Shown here: in pieces, positions 4,193-50,909 of the stretch | How the letters are laid out: each line of letters opens with the position of its first letter | Numbering within the stretch: the stretch's first letter is position 1 | From: Shigella phage ESh27 | DNA length: 64,000 bases | Strand: one strand, 5' to 3' | Sequence record: ON528737 | Program-made: the position numbers and the translations under genes | Notes under the pieces: model-generated | What the model was told of the DNA's origin: nothing | Seen by the model: the letters and a program-made list of their open reading frames with translations, nothing else | The model's database searches: none

Positions 4193-4229
4193 ACCTATCG
4201 AAACGAAATGAGTAAATTTGGAGAATAAA

Positions 4230-5210
4230 ATGTTCAACGTTCAAATCAAAAAAGGTATCTATCGTAATAACGAAATCTCTGGTTCTTATGTTGCCACAAA
4301 GACATGGTTCCCGGCAAAGCTTAATCCTGAATGTTCCCACTTAGGTGACGGTAAAATTTTCGTTATGATTGATGGTTCTGAACGTGGAGTATGGGTCTTC
4401 AAATCAGACATCGTAATGGAAGGAGTTGAGACATCACCAGTTGCAGTTATTGAAAGCGCTGAAGATATGAAAACTCGTATCAACAAACGCTTTAAAGTAA
4501 TGAACATGATGACGAATGGCATTATCGATGGCAAAATTCGTTCACTCATTATTTCAGGTGCAGCAGGTATTGGTAAGACGTATTCTCTGGATAAAGCACT
4601 TAATAATGCTAATGATAATGGTTTCATCAAATACAAAAGCATTAATGGCAAAATCTCTGGTATTGGCCTTTACGAACAACTTTGGCTCAACCGTGATGCA
4701 GACAGCGTTCTCTTAATCGATGACGTTGACGTATTCTCAGATATGGATATCTTGAACCTTCTTAAAGCAGCATTAGATACTGGCGATAAACGCAAAGTTT
4801 GCTGGAGCACTGCATCATCTTATCTTGATGATAAGGGTATCGATAAAGAATTTGAGTTTGAAGGTACTATCGTTTTCATTACAAACGTTGATATCGATAA
4901 AGAGTTAGAACGCGGTTCGAAACTTGCTCCACACCTTCAAGCTTTAGTATCTCGTTCAGTGTATTTGGACCTTGGAGTACACTCTAATGAAGAGATTATG
5001 GTCCGAGTTGAAGATGTAATATTATCTACTGACATGATGCAGAAACGTGGTCTGACTGATGCTGAAACGTATAAAGCATTGTCCTGGATGAAGGCTAACA
5101 TATCTCGTCTTCGCAATGTATCATTACGTACGGCTCTTTATGTAGCAGATTTTATTTCAACTGATAAAGACGGTTGGGAGGAAATCTCCGAAGTAACTTT
5201 ACTGAAATAA
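4230..5210 (+). CDS. P-loop ATPase (AAA-like)
   Basis: 326 aa; Walker A GAAGIGKT and Walker B VLLIDDVD. Confidence 0.65.
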   Translation: MFNVQIKKGIYRNNEISGSYVATKTWFPAKLNPECSHLGDGKIFVMIDGSERGVWVFKSDIVMEGVETSPVAVIESAEDMKTRINKRFKVMNMMTNGIIDGKIRSLIISGAAGIGKTYSLDKALNNANDNGFIKYKSINGKISGIGLYEQLWLNRDADSVLLIDDVDVFSDMDILNLLKAALDTGDKRKVCWSTASSYLDDKGIDKEFEFEGTIVFITNVDIDKELERGSKLAPHLQALVSRSVYLDLGVHSNEEIMVRVEDVILSTDMMQKRGLTDAETYKALSWMKANISRLRNVSLRTALYVADFISTDKDGWEEISEVTLLK

Positions 5211-5638: not shown

Positions 5639-5668
5639 GTTTACAAGGTCTATGGTTATGTTATTATA
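5639..5668 (+). promoter_or_regulatory. early-type promoter within stem-loop
   Basis: GTTTAC-N17-TATTAT; ggtctat/atagacc inverted repeat. Confidence 0.5.
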
Positions 5669-5694: not shown

Positions 5695-6222
5695 ATGAAC
5701 GCTAAAGATATTTTCAACCTGGTAAATTATAACGACGGTAAATTTAAATCTGAAGCACAAAGCAAGTTCTTTAATGACGTTGCTTATGGTAACGAGATTA
5801 CCGTGGACGGAGGTCAGATTTTCAAATCTCGCTGGAATTGGATTGTTATCATCGATTCGATTGGAATTGTGGAAGTCTACAAAAACACTAACAAAAAACG
5901 TACATTATTCTGGTCTCGTGAAACTAACGAGCAGTACAAAAAGGATAAAGCATCTCGTTTATCCAAAGTAACCAAGGAAGATATCGAGTTTATCAAGAAA
6001 GATATCGAGATGTACGAAAATTTAATCGCTGAAGACCAGGCAGTACTCGATAAGTTTGATGAAATTAAAGCTTCTCGTGAAATCCCTGACTTCATGAAAG
6101 AAACAGTAAACGAACGATACGCTCTCACTTCAGAACGTATTGCAAACTATACAAAACAGAAATCAGAACGTATTAGTACTCTTCGGAAATTTGAAGAACG
6201 TTTAAAGACGGTTCACGCATAA
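5695..6222 (+). CDS. hypothetical protein
   Basis: 175 aa; GGAGG SD. Confidence 0.6.
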   Translation: MNAKDIFNLVNYNDGKFKSEAQSKFFNDVAYGNEITVDGGQIFKSRWNWIVIIDSIGIVEVYKNTNKKRTLFWSRETNEQYKKDKASRLSKVTKEDIEFIKKDIEMYENLIAEDQAVLDKFDEIKASREIPDFMKETVNERYALTSERIANYTKQKSERISTLRKFEERLKTVHA

Positions 6223-6223
6223 A

Positions 6224-6249
6224 CGCTTTACCCAAGGACGGGTTATAAT
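6224..6249 (+). promoter_or_regulatory. middle-type promoter candidate (Mot-box-like plus -10)
   Basis: cGCTTTAc about 12 nt upstream of TATAAT; resembles T4 MotA-dependent promoter geometry. Confidence 0.3.
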
Positions 6250-6284
6250 GGTTTTGAGTTCCAATTCAATCTGAGGAAATAGTT

Positions 6285-7280
6285 ATGAGCATTACATCTG
6301 ATGCGGTAAAACATGAAATTAACGGTTTATGTGCTTCACAGATTAAAGTGTGGTTTAAAGACCATAACGATCGCAGAGCACTTAATTATGAGCAAATTGC
6401 TATCCAAGTTCATCAATTACTGACTAGTAAATTTGATTTTCATATGCCGTCTGAAATCTATACTAATCTGCCGCGAGCACTTATTAAAGCGTGTAAAGGT
6501 TATGGAAAATCAATGGCTGATGGAATCTTCAGCGCGCTGAATAAACTTAACGTTCTGTCGATGATTAACTCTAACAACATCCTGCGTAATCTAGGACGTA
6601 CTGATTTGTTCGGTCGTGAACAGTGTAAAATGCCTTTGAAATGGATCGTTGCTCATCTTAACGAGAACCAAACACGTTTTATGGCTGTAACAGCACGTTT
6701 ACAAATGGGCCTAGATCGTCAGATGAACTTTAAAACTCATCCACGTTATTCAGGTTCAACAGACTTTTATAAATGCGAGCTTCAAAAGGTCGGTGGCAAA
6801 ACTGTCTTAGTAGTTCGTGTAACGTTTGAAGGACGACGTCAAGGATATTTTGACATAATCGGCTCTGGACTTAAACATTGCGGATTTATCGACGAAGTTG
6901 ATATCAAGCGAGACGGCATTGGATACCGTATTGGATATGTTTGTACTCTTAAAGAAGAGATTTCAGGACCAGCACCAGGACTAAAAGACGTTAGATATAA
7001 AGACGAGCTCGTCGAAGAAATAAAAGAAGTTGAATATGATATCAACCAAGAAGATGCTCTTAAAGACCTTATTGATGAACTGAACCAAGACGTTATTCCG
7101 GTTCAGAAATTTGAATCAAAACATGCTGAGCAAATCAAATACTTTGAAGCTTTGATTAACGAACTTAATGTAACTATTCAACAGACCGACGATGAAATCT
7201 CACGATTGGCCGGATTGAACGGCAAAAATAAAACAGAACGAGCTAATCTTATTCAAGTAGTAAAACTTCTTAAGGAATGA
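6285..7280 (+). CDS. hypothetical protein with C-terminal coiled coil
   Basis: 331 aa; heptad-rich charged C-terminus. Confidence 0.6.
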   Translation: MSITSDAVKHEINGLCASQIKVWFKDHNDRRALNYEQIAIQVHQLLTSKFDFHMPSEIYTNLPRALIKACKGYGKSMADGIFSALNKLNVLSMINSNNILRNLGRTDLFGREQCKMPLKWIVAHLNENQTRFMAVTARLQMGLDRQMNFKTHPRYSGSTDFYKCELQKVGGKTVLVVRVTFEGRRQGYFDIIGSGLKHCGFIDEVDIKRDGIGYRIGYVCTLKEEISGPAPGLKDVRYKDELVEEIKEVEYDINQEDALKDLIDELNQDVIPVQKFESKHAEQIKYFEALINELNVTIQQTDDEISRLAGLNGKNKTERANLIQVVKLLKE

Positions 7281-7309
7281 TGTACAACCAAGGATGGTTG
7301 GAGTATAAT
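7281..7309 (+). promoter_or_regulatory. early-type promoter within stem-loop
   Basis: TGTACA-N17-TATAAT; core caaccaaggatggttggagtataat repeated at 8305 and 49382. Confidence 0.5.
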
Positions 7310-7335
7310 AAATTTTTCAACATGAGGAATATAAA

Positions 7336-8295
7336 ATGGCTCCTATTACACGTAGAGAACTTATCAAAGAATTTACCTCGAACGCATATACCCCAGGACC
7401 TAATCCTATCCGTATGCCTGTAAAGACACCTGAAGAGATTGAGGAAATCTGTTCATATTATGGGATTAATTCTCGTAAGTTTACTCAATTTGAATGTGTT
7501 ACTAACACACCCGTTAAAGAGTTCATTAAAAATGGTGAGTTCAGCCGTTTACTGGCCAAACAGAAACTTCGTAATTTTTGTATTGGCGGTTATGGACAAT
7601 ATTTCGCTAAGCAGTTCCGGAATAACCTTAACAATCTGATGGCCATTGCTTCTCGTATTCGTCCTCAAGCAATTAACATGAAACATTTGAAATATACTTA
7701 CGATAAGTTGGAAATCATGGTTATCAGTGAGAACGAGTTCACTCTTACGTATAAACCTAAGAATGATAACGTTGCTCGTGTATTCCACCAAGCGTTGGAA
7801 GTTTTAGGTGATAATATCCACGAGATTAAAGCAATTTATTCTCGTGAGCTTAATATTATCGACGTTATCAAGAATAAGGGCCATATCGCTATCCAGGCTC
7901 GTGTATCTATTGGTAAAAAGGTTCCTGCGCCATGGTGGCACAAAGACTCTGAATACTATCAAAATCTTAAAAAGGAAAATGCATTGTTTGAAGGCAATAT
8001 TACAGCAACACCAGTCGGTAATGCAGAGGTTCTAGGCGCATATTCTCCGGCACAATCTGGTATGTTTAAAGGTTTGCCAAATGTGTGCAAACTGTCGGCA
8101 GTAAAACTAAATGTTTCTAATGACCTTCTTCCGGCTGAAGATTATCATTACAATCAAATCAAGGCTACTGTAGACCAACTGTCTGCTGAACTTGATAAGG
8201 CACAAGCTAAGCTTCGTGATGCTCAACAGGTGGTGACCAATCTCCAGTTGCAGTACTCTAAACTTTTTAACGCAATGAATGCATTAAAATCATAA
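7336..8295 (+). CDS. hypothetical protein with C-terminal coiled coil
   Basis: 319 aa. Confidence 0.6.
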   Translation: MAPITRRELIKEFTSNAYTPGPNPIRMPVKTPEEIEEICSYYGINSRKFTQFECVTNTPVKEFIKNGEFSRLLAKQKLRNFCIGGYGQYFAKQFRNNLNNLMAIASRIRPQAINMKHLKYTYDKLEIMVISENEFTLTYKPKNDNVARVFHQALEVLGDNIHEIKAIYSRELNIIDVIKNKGHIAIQARVSIGKKVPAPWWHKDSEYYQNLKKENALFEGNITATPVGNAEVLGAYSPAQSGMFKGLPNVCKLSAVKLNVSNDLLPAEDYHYNQIKATVDQLSAELDKAQAKLRDAQQVVTNLQLQYSKLFNAMNALKS

Positions 8296-8299
8296 ATCA

Positions 8300-8329
8300 G
8301 TTTACAACCAAGGATGGTTGGAGTATAAT
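8300..8329 (+). promoter_or_regulatory. early-type promoter within stem-loop
   Basis: GTTTAC-N18-TATAAT; same 25-mer core as 7285 and 49382. Confidence 0.5.
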
Positions 8330-8357
8330 GAATCTATCTTAACGAGAGGAAAATATT

Positions 8358-9302
8358 ATGACGCGTTCACATTACATTGAATACTTTGCCGGTCTTATCG
8401 CTAACGTTCGTGCCCAGCGCGCCGTTGGTGCACTAGGATTTGATGTTCCACACCGAGATGTAGTAAGTGGTATTCTTCGCGATTTTGGTACATACACAGG
8501 CCAAGAAAACCATATCTGTAAAGATACTCAGAATGCGTATTCTCATTCATTAGGGACACTGCTTCAATGGTTCAAACGTTCTCGTTTATTATCTTCTACT
8601 GTAGCTCGCGATAACATTAAAAACTTTATGAAGCCGAGCTTTATTAAATCTGTGACATCTAAAACCGATTTGGTTGAATTCACTATTGTTAATGATGTTA
8701 AAAAGGCTCATTTGGCCGATTGGTTATCTACCATTCCTGAAACTAAATTTGCCGATAAATTTGCTTGTGAATTCAACAACCAAGTGAATATGCTTTTTAA
8801 ACATTCTCGTAAATTATTCACAGGCGGTGATGGTCGTACAAATAAAGTTCATGTTAAAGATTGGGTTACTGCAGTATTCAAACCAACCGGTAATGGTAAC
8901 GCATCATTATCAATTGATATCCAGGTTCCTTATTACTACTCACGTAATCTCGGTACCATGAAAGCCGAAGAAATTAATAAGCACAACAAAACCGTTCGTT
9001 CATTGTCTTATAAACTCCTTGTGATGTTACAGACTATGGATGTTGTTGAAATGTTTGACGAAACCGAAGATAACGGTTCAATGTTATTCAGTTCTCGAAT
9101 TCGAATTAAACTGAAGAACCCTAATGTGTTTAAGCCTATTAAAGAACCTAAAGCAGAAAAGGTCGATATCATGGCTGAAGAACGTGAGTACCTCAAATCT
9201 CGTCTGAAAGAAGTCGAAGCCCAGATTGCAGAACAAACTAAATCGTTAAAAGCTCTGAATGCGAAAGCTGACGGTTTACGAAATGCCATTGAGGTGTTAT
9301 AA
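8358..9302 (+). CDS. hypothetical protein with C-terminal coiled coil
   Basis: 314 aa. Confidence 0.6.
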   Translation: MTRSHYIEYFAGLIANVRAQRAVGALGFDVPHRDVVSGILRDFGTYTGQENHICKDTQNAYSHSLGTLLQWFKRSRLLSSTVARDNIKNFMKPSFIKSVTSKTDLVEFTIVNDVKKAHLADWLSTIPETKFADKFACEFNNQVNMLFKHSRKLFTGGDGRTNKVHVKDWVTAVFKPTGNGNASLSIDIQVPYYYSRNLGTMKAEEINKHNKTVRSLSYKLLVMLQTMDVVEMFDETEDNGSMLFSSRIRIKLKNPNVFKPIKEPKAEKVDIMAEEREYLKSRLKEVEAQIAEQTKSLKALNAKADGLRNAIEVL

Positions 9303-9607
9303 TGAACTTACGTCTTTTAGAGGATATTGATATGAACACTAATCACAGCTTAGTTAAGTTTATTGATGATAGTTCAAAGATTGAATTTGTTCAGCGAGAT
9401 AAAATCCACGGTGAAGAAGAGTTCGTTCCTCCAGCATGGAACGAAATAATGAAAATGGTTGAACGACGTGAAAATGCTGCCAAATCGGCAGCAAAACATC
9501 CATGTCCGGAATGTGGAACTATCCAAGTCCAATTGGTTAACTGGACCACTGATAACTTGAAATTGAAATGCCGTAAATGCTTCCACAAATTTGAGAGAAC
9601 ATTATAA
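9302..9607 (+). CDS. hypothetical zinc-ribbon protein
   Basis: 101 aa; CPEC...CRKC motif. Confidence 0.55.
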   Translation: MNLRLLEDIDMNTNHSLVKFIDDSSKIEFVQRDKIHGEEEFVPPAWNEIMKMVERRENAAKSAAKHPCPECGTIQVQLVNWTTDNLKLKCRKCFHKFERTL

Positions 9608-10020
9608 TGAGATATAGCCTTCGTTGTTTTATCGCAGCTTTAGTTTTTGCTGTTATTCCATTCATTTGGAACAGCCAGAATACTTACATGGAAACTAAAG
9701 TAATTCCTGTGGAGGTAGTGGAATTAATCTCAGGCCAATCTACAGGAAAATATTCTAAATTAGAATTTATTGCAGTCTATAAAGACGAGCAAGGACGAGT
9801 TTTTGACAGGCATGTATCACCGTCATTTTATACGCTTCTGAATAAAGGTGATACGATAGCTATAGAAATTCGTGAGATGGATATTCAACAAAATAGTAAA
9901 GATAACCTGATTTGGTTCTTTGGTACAGTGTTGTTGGTTTCTATCTGTATCACAGGTTTTATTACATGTATTGTATTGGGTGTTAATTGCTTAATTGACG
10001 AAAGGAAAAATAATGTTTAA
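9607..10020 (+). CDS. hypothetical membrane protein
   Basis: 137 aa; N- and C-terminal hydrophobic helices. Confidence 0.55.
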   Translation: MRYSLRCFIAALVFAVIPFIWNSQNTYMETKVIPVEVVELISGQSTGKYSKLEFIAVYKDEQGRVFDRHVSPSFYTLLNKGDTIAIEIREMDIQQNSKDNLIWFFGTVLLVSICITGFITCIVLGVNCLIDERKNNV

Positions 10021-10276
10021 AGTGTACGGGTATGACTCTACTATTCATAAATGCATTTATTGTGATAACGCGAAACGATTGCTGACTGTTAAGAAACAGC
10101 CGTTCGAATTCATTAACGTGATGCCAGAAAAAGGTGTGTTCGATGATGAGAAAATTGCTGAGCTTCTGGTTAAGCTTGGACGTGAATCACAAGTTGGATT
10201 GACTATGCCTCAGGTGTTTGCTCCTGATGGAACTTCGATCGGTGGCTTTGACCAACTACGAGAATATTTTAAATGA
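10013..10276 (+). CDS. nrdC: phage thioredoxin/glutaredoxin NrdC
   Basis: 87 aa; matches remembered T4 NrdC (MFKVYGYDS.IHKC.YCDNAKRLL). Confidence 0.8.
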   Translation: MFKVYGYDSTIHKCIYCDNAKRLLTVKKQPFEFINVMPEKGVFDDEKIAELLVKLGRESQVGLTMPQVFAPDGTSIGGFDQLREYFK

Positions 10277-10629
10277 CATATTCATTAAATCTTAAAGATT
10301 TCCAAGATGTATACGAAGTTTGTGCCAATGAACTTGGTCCTGATGCTCCAACTATTATTGAAGTTTTAAATGTGCTCCCTTCATCATTAGCTTACGAAGC
10401 CAAATCATGGGGTTGGAACGACACTGTCGTTCGTGATGACCTTTACGTCCTGATGAACGATATGATGGTTAAAAAGGCAGAACCGGTTGCACCAATGGTT
10501 ACCATTACCGTTGAAGAATATAATCGCCTGCAAGCCATTGAAGAGCTTCTGTGGAACATTGAATGTGACCTTCCGTCAGGGCTAGAATCCTGGATTGATT
10601 ATGAAGAGCTCAATAAACTCCGGGGTTAA
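10273..10629 (+). CDS. hypothetical protein
   Basis: 118 aa acidic protein. Confidence 0.55.
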   Translation: MTYSLNLKDFQDVYEVCANELGPDAPTIIEVLNVLPSSLAYEAKSWGWNDTVVRDDLYVLMNDMMVKKAEPVAPMVTITVEEYNRLQAIEELLWNIECDLPSGLESWIDYEELNKLRG

Positions 10630-10757
10630 ACCATGGTATTCGGCTCGATGGGAGACTGTCGAGCCAGACGTCGAAACGGTTTACAACGGCGAAGAACCAT
10701 GTTATGATGAACCTTCAATAAATGAATTAATTGATATGGAAATGGGAAGAGATTATT

Positions 10758-10928
10758 ATGCAAGTTAAATTATTGTACCGTTTATTAAAAAACGGCAAAC
10801 ATGATTGGTATTTGCTTATTAAAACCGATCCGAATTTTTTCTCTGGACAACCATTTACAGTTCGTCCTACTAAACGTCAGCTTCGCAAAGCTAAACGTTC
10901 TCATCGTAACTTTTATAAAGTTTACTAA
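10758..10928 (+). CDS. hypothetical small basic protein
   Basis: 56 aa; C-terminal VRPTKRQLRKAKR tail shared with ORF 38732..38944. Confidence 0.4.
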   Translation: MQVKLLYRLLKNGKHDWYLLIKTDPNFFSGQPFTVRPTKRQLRKAKRSHRNFYKVY

Positions 10929-10930
10929 AT

Positions 10931-10938
10931 TATAAATA
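10931..10938 (+). promoter_or_regulatory. T4-type late promoter (TATAAATA)
   Basis: exact TATAAATA about 30 nt upstream of gene 49. Confidence 0.5.
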
Positions 10939-10967
10939 CCCTTATCTATTTAAGGTAAGGGTTTATC

Positions 10968-11441
10968 ATGTTATTATCAGGCGCAAAATATAAAGAAGAA
11001 AAACAAAAATTTTATGATGCACAGAACGGTAAGTGTCCTATTTGCCGCCGTGAATTAGACTCTGATGTTCAAGGTAACCATCTTGACCACGACCATGAAT
11101 TAAACGGGCCAAAAGCCGGTAGAGTTCGTGGATTACTCTGTAATCTGTGCAACGCAGCAGAAGGTCAAATGAAGCATAAGTTCAACCGTTCCGGTTTGAA
11201 AGGTCAAAACGTTGATTACTTAGAATGGCTTGAAGCTCTTCTTGCTTATTTGAAACAAGATTATTCTGATAATAATATCCATCCTAATTTTGTTCCGGAT
11301 AAAACTAAAGAGTTCTCAAGACTAGGTAAAGAGGAAATGATGACCGAGATGCTTCAAAGAGGATTTGAATATAATGAATCTGATACTAAAACACAATTAA
11401 TAGCTTCATTCAAAAAGCAGCTTAGAAAGAGTTTAAAATGA
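10968..11441 (+). CDS. 49: endonuclease VII (Holliday junction resolvase)
   Basis: 157 aa; matches remembered T4 gp49 (HLDHDHELNGPKAG.VRGLLCNLCNAAEG). Confidence 0.85.
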   Translation: MLLSGAKYKEEKQKFYDAQNGKCPICRRELDSDVQGNHLDHDHELNGPKAGRVRGLLCNLCNAAEGQMKHKFNRSGLKGQNVDYLEWLEALLAYLKQDYSDNNIHPNFVPDKTKEFSRLGKEEMMTEMLQRGFEYNESDTKTQLIASFKKQLRKSLK

Positions 11442-49376: not shown

Positions 49377-49406
49377 GTTTACAACCAAGGATGGTTGGAG
49401 TATAAT
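49377..49406 (+). promoter_or_regulatory. early-type promoter within stem-loop
   Basis: GTTTAC-N18-TATAAT; same 25-mer core as 7285 and 8305. Confidence 0.5.
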
Positions 49407-49437: not shown

Positions 49438-49932
49438 ATGAATATCAATACTACGGCTACTTACATCCTGAAAGACGAAAAACAAATTAACTGGTATGGT
49501 GCTTCAGTGCGAGCTTACGAAAAGTTTTGTGAAATTTTAGGCACCACTCAAGGTAATAGTTTCACTATTGTTAACTTCATCAAACAAGCTGAAGGCCCTT
49601 GGTTATTCTTAGAAATTAAAAATTCATATGGTACAATTTCCACTACCGCCCTTCCAAGCACAGACTTTGAACTGTTGATTGAAGAAGTAGAACCCGTTAA
49701 AGACATCTGTATTGATATGGATATCGCTTGTATGTACGGTACTCTGATTAAGCCTATTGAGCCTACTGATTTGCTGTGTAAATATGTTTCAATTCGACGC
49801 CCGTTCGCAGGTCCAGTAAATGGATGGGTAACTGACCAGTGGATTGAAGACGGTGTTGAACTTCTGAACGTTGTTCATGCAGGTGATTTTAGTGTAGTTC
49901 CACGTAGTGCTGTGGTTAATATCCTTAATTAA
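49438..49932 (+). CDS. hypothetical protein (paralog family, copy 1)
   Basis: 164 aa; C-terminal GWVTDQWIEDGVELLNVVHAGDFSVV shared with the next two genes. Confidence 0.55.
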   Translation: MNINTTATYILKDEKQINWYGASVRAYEKFCEILGTTQGNSFTIVNFIKQAEGPWLFLEIKNSYGTISTTALPSTDFELLIEEVEPVKDICIDMDIACMYGTLIKPIEPTDLLCKYVSIRRPFAGPVNGWVTDQWIEDGVELLNVVHAGDFSVVPRSAVVNILN

Positions 49933-49935
49933 TGT

Positions 49936-49964
49936 TGTACATCCAAGGATGGATGGAGTATAAT
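49936..49964 (+). promoter_or_regulatory. early-type promoter within stem-loop
   Basis: TGTACA-N17-TATAAT; variant of the caaccaagg...tataat core. Confidence 0.5.
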
Positions 49965-49994
49965 GAATTCAATTTAAACAAAGAGAGAGAAATT

Positions 49995-50480
49995 ATGAAT
50001 CTTGGTATTATTGGTGAAATCGTTCGCGTATCTAACAAATCTCGTTCTAAAGCCGCAGGAAAATTGGTCGAAGTTGTAAGTATTCAACTTAAAGAAGGCG
50101 TTAAAGATGAAGATTCTGAGGTAAAAGTTCGTATTATTCCTAGTTTTGGGACACAGGAAACCAAATTTGCTTATGTTCGTGCAAAGTTCTTGGAAACGCC
50201 TGTGAGTAGTGCTTTTGCTTCAAGAGAAAAAGTTGAATCCACAGAGCATAATGCACAGTTCAAATGGGCCTTGTGTAAAGGTGTTGAATTCCAGACCGAT
50301 AAAGAATTTGACTTCATCGATGAATATGGTTATCCAAGCAAAACTGATACTATGTGTGGCTTCATTAGTGACCAATGGGTTGAAGATGGTGAAAAGTTAT
50401 ACAATATCGTATTCTTAGGTGACTTCCGAGTTGTTAAAGAATCTGAAATCACTCGCTATGTGTCTCCTCGTAAAGCTTAA
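49995..50480 (+). CDS. hypothetical protein (paralog family, copy 2)
   Basis: 161 aa; N-terminal SRSKAAGKLVEVVS and C-terminal GFISDQWVEDGEKLYNIVFLGDFRVV. Confidence 0.55.
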   Translation: MNLGIIGEIVRVSNKSRSKAAGKLVEVVSIQLKEGVKDEDSEVKVRIIPSFGTQETKFAYVRAKFLETPVSSAFASREKVESTEHNAQFKWALCKGVEFQTDKEFDFIDEYGYPSKTDTMCGFISDQWVEDGEKLYNIVFLGDFRVVKESEITRYVSPRKA

Positions 50481-50489
50481 GGAATTATT

Positions 50490-50909
50490 ATGAATATTGC
50501 AAATCTCTCTATTGGTGATTATGTACACGTATCAGATGCTTCTCGCTCTAAAGTTGCCGGGAAGTTGGTTGAAGTTCTTTCTGTAAGTTGTGGACTCTTT
50601 AGTCCACATCAAGTTAAAGTTCGTGATGCTGATGGCAACATTGGCTACGTCTCAAGCCAATTCATTGAACCAGAAGAAAAAGCGTTCAAATGGGGACTAT
50701 GCAGATCAGTTTCTGTTGAAAAAGACCACGAATTCACTATTGCTGCGGCAACCGATGGAACGCCATGGAAAACTAAGCAAATCGCCGGATTTATTAGCGA
50801 CCGTTGGGTAGAAGATGGTGTTAAGCTTTATAACATCGTTTTCGCTGGTCAGTTCATGGTAGTTCCTGAATTCCAAATTAAAAAATATAGCCCGGCTGCT
50901 TTCGCATAA
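50490..50909 (+). CDS. hypothetical protein (paralog family, copy 3)
   Basis: 139 aa; SRSKVAGKLVEVLS and GFISDRWVEDGVKLYNIVFAGQFMVV. Confidence 0.55.
   Translation: MNIANLSIGDYVHVSDASRSKVAGKLVEVLSVSCGLFSPHQVKVRDADGNIGYVSSQFIEPEEKAFKWGLCRSVSVEKDHEFTIAAATDGTPWKTKQIAGFISDRWVEDGVKLYNIVFAGQFMVVPEFQIKKYSPAAFA

Follow-up and report, generated by a model that had tools for sequence, protein, structure and literature searches.

The nrdC.6-, nrdC.5-, and nrdC.3-like gene array of Shigella phage ESh27 as a putative set of coiled-coil anti-defence paralogs

We analysed three consecutive open reading frames (ORFs), designated ORF1, ORF2, and ORF3, in a 64,000-nucleotide stretch of Shigella phage ESh27 (sequence record ON528737; "the window" below refers to this whole stretch). 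We propose, with slightly better than even confidence, that this array is a set of shufflable, oligomeric anti-defence genes, comprising the Mosigvirus (RB69-like) nrdC.6, nrdC.5, and nrdC.3 and descended, together with nrdC.4, from one ancestral gene. The array sits in the well-known hyperplastic nrdC region of T-even phages, between nrdC.8 and nrdC.2 and upstream of nrdC. All three reading frames were present exactly where the initial annotation had placed them, on the plus strand and at the lengths given in Table 1. Each is preceded by a GAGGA Shine-Dalgarno (SD) sequence located 7 to 8 nt before its ATG. In a comparison with four relatives, the ratio of nonsynonymous to synonymous divergence (dN/dS) ranged from 0.02 to 0.27 over all three (ORF1, 0.02 to 0.15; ORF2, 0.19 to 0.27; ORF3, 0.09 to 0.19). 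This purifying selection indicates that ORF1, ORF2, and ORF3 are functional protein-coding genes.

Identity of the array and relationship of its protein families

BLASTP matched ORF1 to T4 NrdC.6 (29% identity, E = 1.7e-18), ORF2 to T4 NrdC.5 (26% identity, E = 8.6e-11), and ORF3 to T4 NrdC.3 (56% identity, E = 1.2e-121), with a further, weak match of ORF3 to T4 NrdC.4 (E = 4e-5). ORF1 also matched RB3 nrdC.6 (E = 7e-32) and is 98% identical to an RB69 gene annotated there as nrdC.6; the RB69 homologue of ORF2 likewise carries the name NrdC.5. Judged by sequence, the three genes are thus the Mosigvirus counterparts of T4 nrdC.6, nrdC.5, and nrdC.3. An assignment by synteny to nrdC.5, nrdC.4, and nrdC.3 was also considered and was ruled out by these BLASTP results. 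ORF2 fit the Pfam model DUF7235 (PF23882) over profile positions 1 to 307 of 307 (1.1e-117, 393.3 bits against a gathering cutoff of 30), a model that T4 NrdC.5 (5.3e-126) and a Dhakavirus homologue also fit. When gene order in T4, RB3, JEP6, and phage 55 was compared with that of the window, ORF2 occupied the slot between the nrdC.6-like and the nrdC.4/.3-like genes. ORF1 and ORF3 matched phrog_2257 (1.6e-127) and phrog_1435 (1.6e-100), both of unknown function. Similarity extends over the full length for ORF1 with the T4 and RB69 nrdC.6 products and for ORF3 with T4 NrdC.3. The families are limited to enterobacterial Tevenvirinae: a profile search with the NrdC.6 family returned six matches among 1.84 billion representative proteins, all NrdC.6-type or fragments, and two IMG/VR scans with the family alignments returned just two and five loci without added diversity. 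Searches of PDB sequences with the three family profiles gave nothing under E = 0.08.

Profile-profile comparisons linked the families with graded strength. The NrdC.4 and NrdC.3 profiles aligned with an hhalign probability of 97.7 to 97.8% (E = 1e-12 to 1.5e-12), and individual members matched by BLASTP at 1e-8; at the sequence level, the homology of these two families is established, and NrdC.4 is a fourth paralog. The NrdC.5 profile aligned with the NrdC.4 or combined NrdC.3+4 profiles over 98 to 140 collinear columns (probability, 28 to 78%; E = 1.8e-5, 3.1e-5, and 6.2e-4), and the ORF2 family probably belongs with them. Comparisons of the NrdC.6 profile yielded E values of 3e-4 against the merged NrdC.3/4/5 profile, 0.003 to 0.037 against NrdC.3+4, and 0.03 to 0.1 against NrdC.5, which is suggestive of membership for the ORF1 family as well. 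As a null, each target profile was column shuffled 100 times. The NrdC.5 versus NrdC.3/4 score of 41.9 exceeded the shuffled scores of 13.7 ± 2.3 (z = 12), and the NrdC.6 score of 35.2 against the merged profile exceeded 11.9 ± 2.2 (z = 10.4). Overall, the profile scores lay 12, 10.4, 6.5, and 3.9 standard deviations (SD units) above the shuffle mean, the lowest belonging to the direct NrdC.6-NrdC.5 pair, and no shuffle equalled any of them.

Two motifs recurred in every pairing, aligned in a constant order and at equivalent positions. Motif 1 reads [FL]-K-x-x-[GR]-x-[LF]-S-x-x-x-[AN]-x-x-x-[LI]-x-[ND]-[FY] and motif 2 reads F-x-x-x-[FL]-x-x-N-x-x-x-[LFM]-x-x-x-[AS]-[RK]-[LI]; they are followed by beta strands, a helix, a variable linker, and the tail. 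The secondary-structure strings of the low-confidence AlphaFold2 (AF2) models of ORF1 and ORF2 agreed in 59% of aligned columns, compared with 42 ± 6% for circular shifts. We regard this consistency of the motifs as more persuasive of paralogy than the shuffle z-scores. Common ancestry of all four families, NrdC.3, NrdC.4, NrdC.5, and NrdC.6, appears most likely from these alignments.

The proteins also resemble one another at their C termini. Tails were scored by hydrophobic occupancy of heptad a and d positions in 28-residue windows against 200 shuffles of the same protein, a home-made measure rather than COILS or MARCOIL. Among 100 plus-strand ORF segments, ORF2 and ORF3 ranked first and second for C-terminal heptad signal, and the next best segment scored 0.58. 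The ORF2 tail has 14 consecutive hydrophobic a/d positions (Y272 to L317), ends in LFNAMNALKS, and corresponds to a single helix (residues 266 to 318) that is the sole part of its AF2 model with a predicted local distance difference test (pLDDT) value of 60 to 79. The a/d positions of ORF3 extend from L279 to L314, and the protein ends in LRNAIEVL. The best heptad window of ORF1 is C-terminal as well, with a/d residues I284, F287, I291, L294, I298, T301, I305, and L308, a break at G310-G313, and then L322, V326, and L329; the register runs on in frame across the break to L329, and AF2 predicts a helix (281 to 309), a turn, and a second helix (316 to 330). In comparison with phage ESCO47, nonsynonymous divergence (dN) was 0.027 in the ORF1 tail and 0.256 in the remainder of the protein. 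The terminal motif L-x-x-[AV]-[ILMV]-x-x-L-K is common to the four families. Such tails would make the proteins oligomers. The initial annotation had described charged, heptad-rich tails of about 60 residues. Heptad helices were recovered in ORF2 and ORF3, at lengths of 43 to 53 residues across the array, and charged residues are clearly enriched over the remainder of the protein only in the ORF3 tail (39% versus 23%; ORF2, 21% versus 23%).

Table 1. Genes, conserved motifs, promoter-hairpin cassettes, and C-terminal tails of the array
Feature	Window position	Strand	Residues	Description
ORF1	6285..7280	+	331 aa	NrdC.6 family; phrog_2257; precomputed Pfam PF26899
ORF1 motif 1			83-104	
ORF1 motif 2			119-140	
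ORF1 beta-rich region			~150-221	AF2 secondary structure
ORF1 linker			~222-256	Low confidence; AF2 secondary structure
ORF1 helical tail	7122..7277	+	280-331	End LIQVVKLLKE
ORF2	7336..8295	+	319 aa	NrdC.5 family; Pfam DUF7235 (PF23882)
ORF2 motif 1			63-82	
ORF2 motif 2			90-109	
ORF2 linker			~217-262	Variable
ORF2 coiled-coil tail	8134..8292	+	267-319	Heptad score 0.95; shuffle 95th percentile 0.63
ORF3	8358..9302	+	314 aa	NrdC.3 family; phrog_1435; precomputed Pfam PF26897
ORF3 motif 1			72-91	
ORF3 motif 2			131-153	
ORF3 coiled-coil tail	9171..9299	+	272-314	Heptad score 0.84; shuffle 95th percentile 0.68
ORF1 cassette	6227..6249	+		Degraded; TTTACC 6227-6232, 11-nt spacer, TATAAT 6244-6249; hairpin ACCC-AAGGAC-GGGT 6230-6243
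ORF2 cassette	7281..7309	+		PeSL type; TGTACA-17-TATAAT, 10/12 consensus; hairpin CAACCA-AGGA-TGGTTG 7285-7300
ORF3 cassette	8301..8329	+		PeSL type; TTTACA-17-TATAAT, 11/12 consensus; hairpin 8305-8320

Promoter-hairpin cassettes and variation in gene content

Upstream of the genes lie cassettes with the layout (G)TTTAC(A), stem, AGGA loop, complementary stem, (GGA)G-TATAAT, about 20 nt, GAGGA, and ATG. A 29-nt core is common to those of ORF2 and ORF3, apart from a single mismatch (chance expectation, 0.00). This core recurs in the window, once identical to the ORF3 cassette (49378 to 49406) and once as a compensatory variant (49936 to 49964) in which CATCCA/TGGATG replaces CAACCA/TGGTTG. Five cassette copies were detected in total, all on the plus strand, against 0.04 expected; in addition to the three hairpins listed in Table 1, hairpins occur at 49382 to 49397 and 49940 to 49955. 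In the ORF2 cassette, GGAG adjoins the -10 element, and the fold energy is -6.9 kcal/mol. The ORF1 cassette was absent from the promoter-scan calls and was found by the hairpin scan; its fold (-4.9 kcal/mol) is no better than those of shuffled sequences. Because of its short spacer, it cannot serve as a canonical -35/-10 pair, and ORF1 may be read through from a promoter at 5640 to 5667. A short cassette of the ORF1 type is also present in ESCO47 and CLB_P2. The proposal that each ORF has its own promoter cassette therefore holds for ORF2 and ORF3, with their 17-nt spacers and near-identical core, and is doubtful for the mis-spaced, uncalled ORF1 copy. The same division applies to the description of all three as early proteins: ORF2 and ORF3 have strong promoters of the T4 early type, and T4 nrdC.5 is an early gene (PMC9391042), whereas the ORF1 promoter is in doubt.

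To characterize the hairpin, we aligned ten distinct cassette copies from the window, T4, RB3, ESCO47, and CLB_P2. The AGGA loop and the closing C-A/U-G were invariant, whereas the stems covaried (ACC/GGT, TCC/GGA, CCAC/GTGG, GCC/GGC, and TACC/GGTA). In this hand-anchored alignment, 88% of cells were paired, four of six pairs carried compensatory changes, and the covariation score was 0.593, compared with 0.138 ± 0.058 in shuffles and no more than 0.137 when the partners were slid. Fold energies are weak, at -4.9 to -9.4 kcal/mol, and U-tracts are absent, so activity as intrinsic terminators is doubtful; a terminator scan called none at the cassette sites. A search of the cassette region against Rfam gave no match. 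Given its location between the -35 and -10 elements, the hairpin would exist as RNA on read-through transcripts only. At window positions 7301 to 7311 and 8321 to 8331, the -10 box is overlapped by the sequence GGAGTATAAT(A/G), which is similar to the consensus for RegB/S1 cleavage, GGAGRAYARAA (PMC1702504), and these sites could be processing sites on read-through early mRNA.

The two distal cassettes have a setting of their own. Downstream of a dda-like helicase gene and a dexA-like gene, three adjacent small ORFs (49438 to 49932, 49932 to 50480, and 50490 to 50909; 164, 182, and 139 aa) share the C-terminal pattern GFISDxWVEDG..LYNIVF.G.F.VV, which makes them another local paralog set. The 164- and 182-aa ORFs, at 49438 and 49932, have the same promoter-hairpin cassette upstream as ORF2 and ORF3.

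Comparison with ESCO47 suggests how the cassettes may take part in gene exchange. ESCO47 has nrdC.6- and nrdC.3-like genes and no nrdC.5-like gene. We compared its nrdC.6/nrdC.3 junction (5961 to 6039) with window positions 7263 to 7338 and 8278 to 8360 and found it to be chimeric: the left part is identical to the ORF1/ORF2 cassette, the right part follows the ORF2/ORF3 type, and the resulting stem is mismatched (ACC...GGA). This is the footprint expected of recombination between flanking cassettes, and it favours the view that entire genes are gained and lost by way of the cassettes. Cassette recombination is thus the likely cause of the ESCO47 indel as judged from the genome comparison, and it fits the published model for promoter early stem-loop (PeSL) elements. 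The initial annotation had suggested diversification by cassette duplication. Such duplication is plausible and would follow from the remote paralogy of the families; what the junction records is gene gain or loss.

Gene content differs further among relatives. A fourth gene of comparable size, nrdC.4, separates nrdC.5 from nrdC.3 in T4, RB3, and JEP6. The T4 reference nrdC.6 (275 aa) stops early and has lost its tail, and the RB3 and JEP6 versions are intact at 295 aa. In T4 (NC_000866, 11994 to 12084, minus strand), the downstream sequence still encodes the conserved tail ...SSKAKSEREKLIKIVDLLKS, in a different frame; the truncation reflects either a frameshift or pseudogenisation in T4 or else a sequencing error. 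For the region at 9995 to 10968, tblastn (E ≤ 1e-3) found no match within the window to T4 pin, 49.2, 49.3, nrdC.1, or nrdC.4, so the anti-defence gene content of this region differs from that of T4.

Anti-defence role and competing explanations

Published experiments on T4 nrdC.5 point to a role for the array in counter-defence. Srikant et al. (2022; eLife, PMC9391042) described a T4 clone, obtained by evolution, that carried a large deletion and had lost the ability to plate on strain ECOR17; deletion of the host dsr1 gene restored plating, and on cells with ECOR17 dsr1 a T4 deletion mutant plated again when nrdC.5 was expressed. In the same work, T4 nrdC.5 was an early, nonessential gene. 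Gp49.2, the product of a gene of the same region, inhibits the OLD defence (T6; PMC13096335). Closely related phages also differ in which of the genes they carry: nrdC.4 is missing from the window and nrdC.5 from ESCO47, and T4 nrdC.6 is tail-less. Since the genes are nonessential and variably present, and given the published NrdC.5 data, anti-defence is the best-supported role for the array. By extension, ORF1 and ORF3 would also be anti-defence genes, and Dsr1 would be a candidate target of ORF2.

A mechanism consistent with these observations would run as follows. The paralogs would have kept an ancestral design, consisting of an alpha+beta N-terminal domain of about 210 to 260 aa with two helix motifs, a variable linker, and a C-terminal heptad helix of 43 to 53 aa. 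Each would be synthesised in the first minutes of infection from a sigma-70 early promoter of its own, and its diverged N-terminal domain would bind and neutralise a different host immune protein, the published target of the NrdC.5 family being the SIR2-domain NADase Dsr1. The coiled coil would supply avidity or match an oligomeric target. The intergenic cassettes would act both as transcription units and as short homologies at which recombination adds, removes, or swaps genes, giving phage-specific sets. A more specific version of this proposal, which we offer tentatively and consider doubtful in its full form, is that NrdC.3, NrdC.4, NrdC.5, and NrdC.6 make up one diversifying family of coiled-coil-oligomerised immune antagonists, with each N-terminal domain tuned to a different host sensor (candidates are Dsr1 and relatives with a capsid-sensing domain), exchanged as promoter-hairpin-gene cassettes in which the AGGA hairpin and the GGAG-UAUAAU element perhaps act at the RNA level, in insulation or RegB processing. 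The sensor domain of Dsr1 is reported to recognise the phage major capsid protein (2026 preprint, bioRxiv 10.64898/2026.01.04.697583).

Several results weigh against the proposal of an anti-defence family. BLASTP detected no similarity among ORF1, ORF2, and ORF3 (E = 0.23 or worse), PHROGs and Pfam file them in three separate families, and leave-one-family-out HMMER searches of 158 ORF segments found them weakly (ORF3, E = 0.0085; ORF2, 0.43; ORF1, 0.38). HH-suite probabilities for NrdC.6 with the other families were low (0.6 to 39%; 0.6 to 1.4% with the hhalign tool), and the best heptad window of ORF1 (residues 281 to 308) scored 0.60 against a shuffle threshold of 0.64 and does not reach significance by itself. 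These results would be expected if the three, or ORF1 at least, belonged to ORFan families with no common origin, each with an amphipathic helix at its C terminus, so that convergence or chance would account for their likeness and helix composition for the weak profile matches. Further points bear on the same question. The column-shuffle null destroys local helical patterns and is therefore lenient, so that the z-scores overstate significance, and the search of 1.84 billion representative proteins found no bridge sequences between NrdC.6 and the other families. Homologue searches gave only close relatives (at least 56% identity) and hence shallow multiple sequence alignments; their insufficient depth caused the AF2 structural comparison to fail, with mean pLDDT values of 47.7 for ORF1 and 42.1 for ORF2, so that nothing beyond the order of secondary-structure elements and the tail helix of ORF2 could be used. 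Foldseek searches of BFVD with these low-confidence models returned essentially their own family alone (template modeling score, <0.4). With the ORF1 model, Foldseek also matched uncharacterised 304- to 346-aa proteins of Serratia phage CBH8 and Acinetobacter phage Acj61 (E = 1e-3 to 2.5e-3; probability, 0.95 to 0.97), which could be distant members in other T4-like genera, given a query model too poor to trust. We nevertheless consider unrelated origins unlikely. The NrdC.3-NrdC.4 relationship is solid (E = 1.5e-12), the NrdC.5 link is collinear over 98 to 140 columns at E values of about 1e-5 to 6e-4, the same two motifs stand at equivalent positions in all pairings, and the scores exceed column shuffles by 6 to 12 SD units, or 3.9 for the direct NrdC.6-NrdC.5 comparison. 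To these are added the common terminal L-x-x-A-[ILM]-x-x-L-K, the tandem position of the genes, and their shared or related flanking cassettes. Support for the common architecture attributed to all three in the initial annotation comes from the secondary-structure order and the two motifs and not from pairwise similarity; as one family, ORF3 is clearly joined with NrdC.4, ORF2 probably so, and ORF1 suggestively, while the databases keep separate Pfam and PHROG entries.

The functional part of the proposal has points on both sides as well. Experimental data in the proposed superfamily are limited to T4 NrdC.5; ORF2 is just 26% identical to the tested protein, and its target may differ. A literature search for an anti-Dsr1 mechanism or for DUF7235 found just the 2022 eLife paper and no mechanism for NrdC.5, and NCBIfam and PADLOC gave no meaningful defence or anti-defence profile match for the proteins. 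The initial annotation had suggested that the proteins might be host-takeover factors or oligomeric effectors. The coiled-coil tails fit oligomers. Takeover factors would act on core machinery, such as transcription, the nucleoid, proteolysis, or metabolism, and not on immune systems. Many T4 early ORFs of this kind are host directed, and the strong early promoters of ORF2 and ORF3 would suit such a role. However, T4 NrdC.5, the sole member tested, counteracts a defence protein, and the phage can do without it on a strain that lacks this protein (PMC9391042), and presence or absence between close phages and restriction to enterobacterial Tevenvirinae are features typical, in the former case, of host-range or anti-defence genes and not of core takeover. 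A takeover role thus seems distinctly improbable, and counter-defence remains the reading to which the only experimental datum, T4 NrdC.5 against Dsr1, points. It is very hard to credit that ORF1, ORF2, and ORF3 are thioredoxin-like or ribonucleotide reductase accessory proteins, even though dozens of GenBank phage records give homologues of nrdC.2 to nrdC.11 the product name "thioredoxin." Neither Pfam nor NCBIfam gave a thioredoxin or glutaredoxin match to any of the three, and their translations contain no CxxC motif; the true NrdC is an 87-aa protein encoded at about 10013 to 10273 of the window. Historical names of the form nrdC.N, to which the label traces, merely mean "ORF next to nrdC" (T4 record), so the label is, on this evidence, a propagated name error and should be disregarded on these genes in the many records that carry it.

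Part of this picture is already known: the genes are T-even accessory genes, the anti-defence role of NrdC.5 is published, and the cassettes belong to a described class. New here are (i) the case for an NrdC.3/.4/.5/.6 superfamily with a common coiled-coil tail, (ii) the covariation around the AGGA loop, and (iii) the recombinant junction of ESCO47. T-even phages carry about 100 small early genes without known function, and a growing share of these proves to be counter-defence. If the four families form one paralogous family with a shared oligomerisation module, then anti-Dsr1 activity provides a testable hypothesis for three further widespread families and a route to the mechanism of Dsr1 inhibition. 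Gain and loss of genes through cassettes would also help explain host-range differences among therapeutic T4-like phages.

Genomic surroundings and comparison with known systems

The window is uniform in composition, at about 37% GC, with nearly all genes on the plus strand. Positions 6000 to 9700 matched 514 phage records, the best of which were Escherichia and Shigella phages of the genus Mosigvirus. Matches spanning 80% or more of this 3.7-kb block were obtained in 131 phage records, with 95 to 99% identity in 118, and the block is about 96 to 97% identical across more than 100 Mosigvirus genomes. Upstream of the array are homologues of T4 nrdC.10, nrdC.9, and nrdC.8, and downstream are nrdC.2, nrdC.7, nrdC, gene 49 (endonuclease VII), and nrdD. 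The NrdC.10 homologue (4218 to 5210; 77% identity to T4) is an uncharacterised ATPase in which weak P-loop similarity was found both to clamp-loader PHROGs and to profiles of AAA_22, AAA_16, and STAND-type NTPases (E = 2e-4 to 5e-2). An nrdC.7-like gene (9607 to 10020), encoding a predicted membrane protein with 41 to 43% identity to T4 NrdC.7, lies downstream of the nrdC.2-like gene; T4 nrdC.7 lies between nrdC.8 and nrdC.6, and the window copy therefore represents a gene displacement inside the hyperplastic region.

Among known systems, DSAD1, the phage inhibitor of DSR2 (PMC10981675 and PMC11087589), resembles NrdC.5 by functional analogy only: in both cases a phage protein blocks a SIR2-family NADase defence, in that of DSAD1 reportedly by binding. 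No sequence relationship between DSAD1 and NrdC.5 was found, and the target of DSAD1 is DSR2, not Dsr1, whose sensor reportedly recognises the major capsid protein and not the tail tube (bioRxiv 10.64898/2026.01.04.697583). The closest comparison is with T4 itself. T4 NrdC.5 and ORF2 fit the same Pfam model end to end, occupy equivalent slots in the nrdC region, fall in the same length class, and share a C-terminal coiled coil finishing KL-x-N-A-[LM]-N-A-L; they differ in their low overall identity (26%), in the linker, and in 20 to 30 residues of insertions that are missing. NrdC.3 and NrdC.6 of T4 are syntenic with ORF3 and ORF1 and have the same tails (56% identity for ORF3 to NrdC.3; 29 to 33% for ORF1 to NrdC.6), whereas T4 NrdC.4 has no counterpart in the window. 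In T4 and RB3, nrdC.6 and nrdC.5 lie 8 nt apart with no cassette between them, whereas in the window each gene has its own.

The cassettes compare with PeSL elements, described as stem-loops between or overlapping promoter boxes (Arbiol 2010, PMC2839356; Comeau 2014, PMC4122927). PeSLs favour hyperplastic regions, and degraded, mis-spaced copies occur near 43 to 51 kb of PST/T4 (PMC2839356 and PMC4122927). Unlike the PeSLs of RB49, the cassettes of the window have a short hairpin of 4 to 7 bp with an invariant AGGA tetraloop and covarying stems, and no G-run/C-run stems; without a U-tract and at -5 to -8 kcal/mol, terminator activity is doubtful. In other respects the two agree: both combine a sigma-70-like early promoter, a stem-loop between the -35 and -10 elements, and an SD sequence and ATG at the 3' end; both flank accessory ORFs in a hyperplastic region and include degraded, mis-spaced copies; and in both, recombination between copies would explain the presence or absence of the intervening gene.

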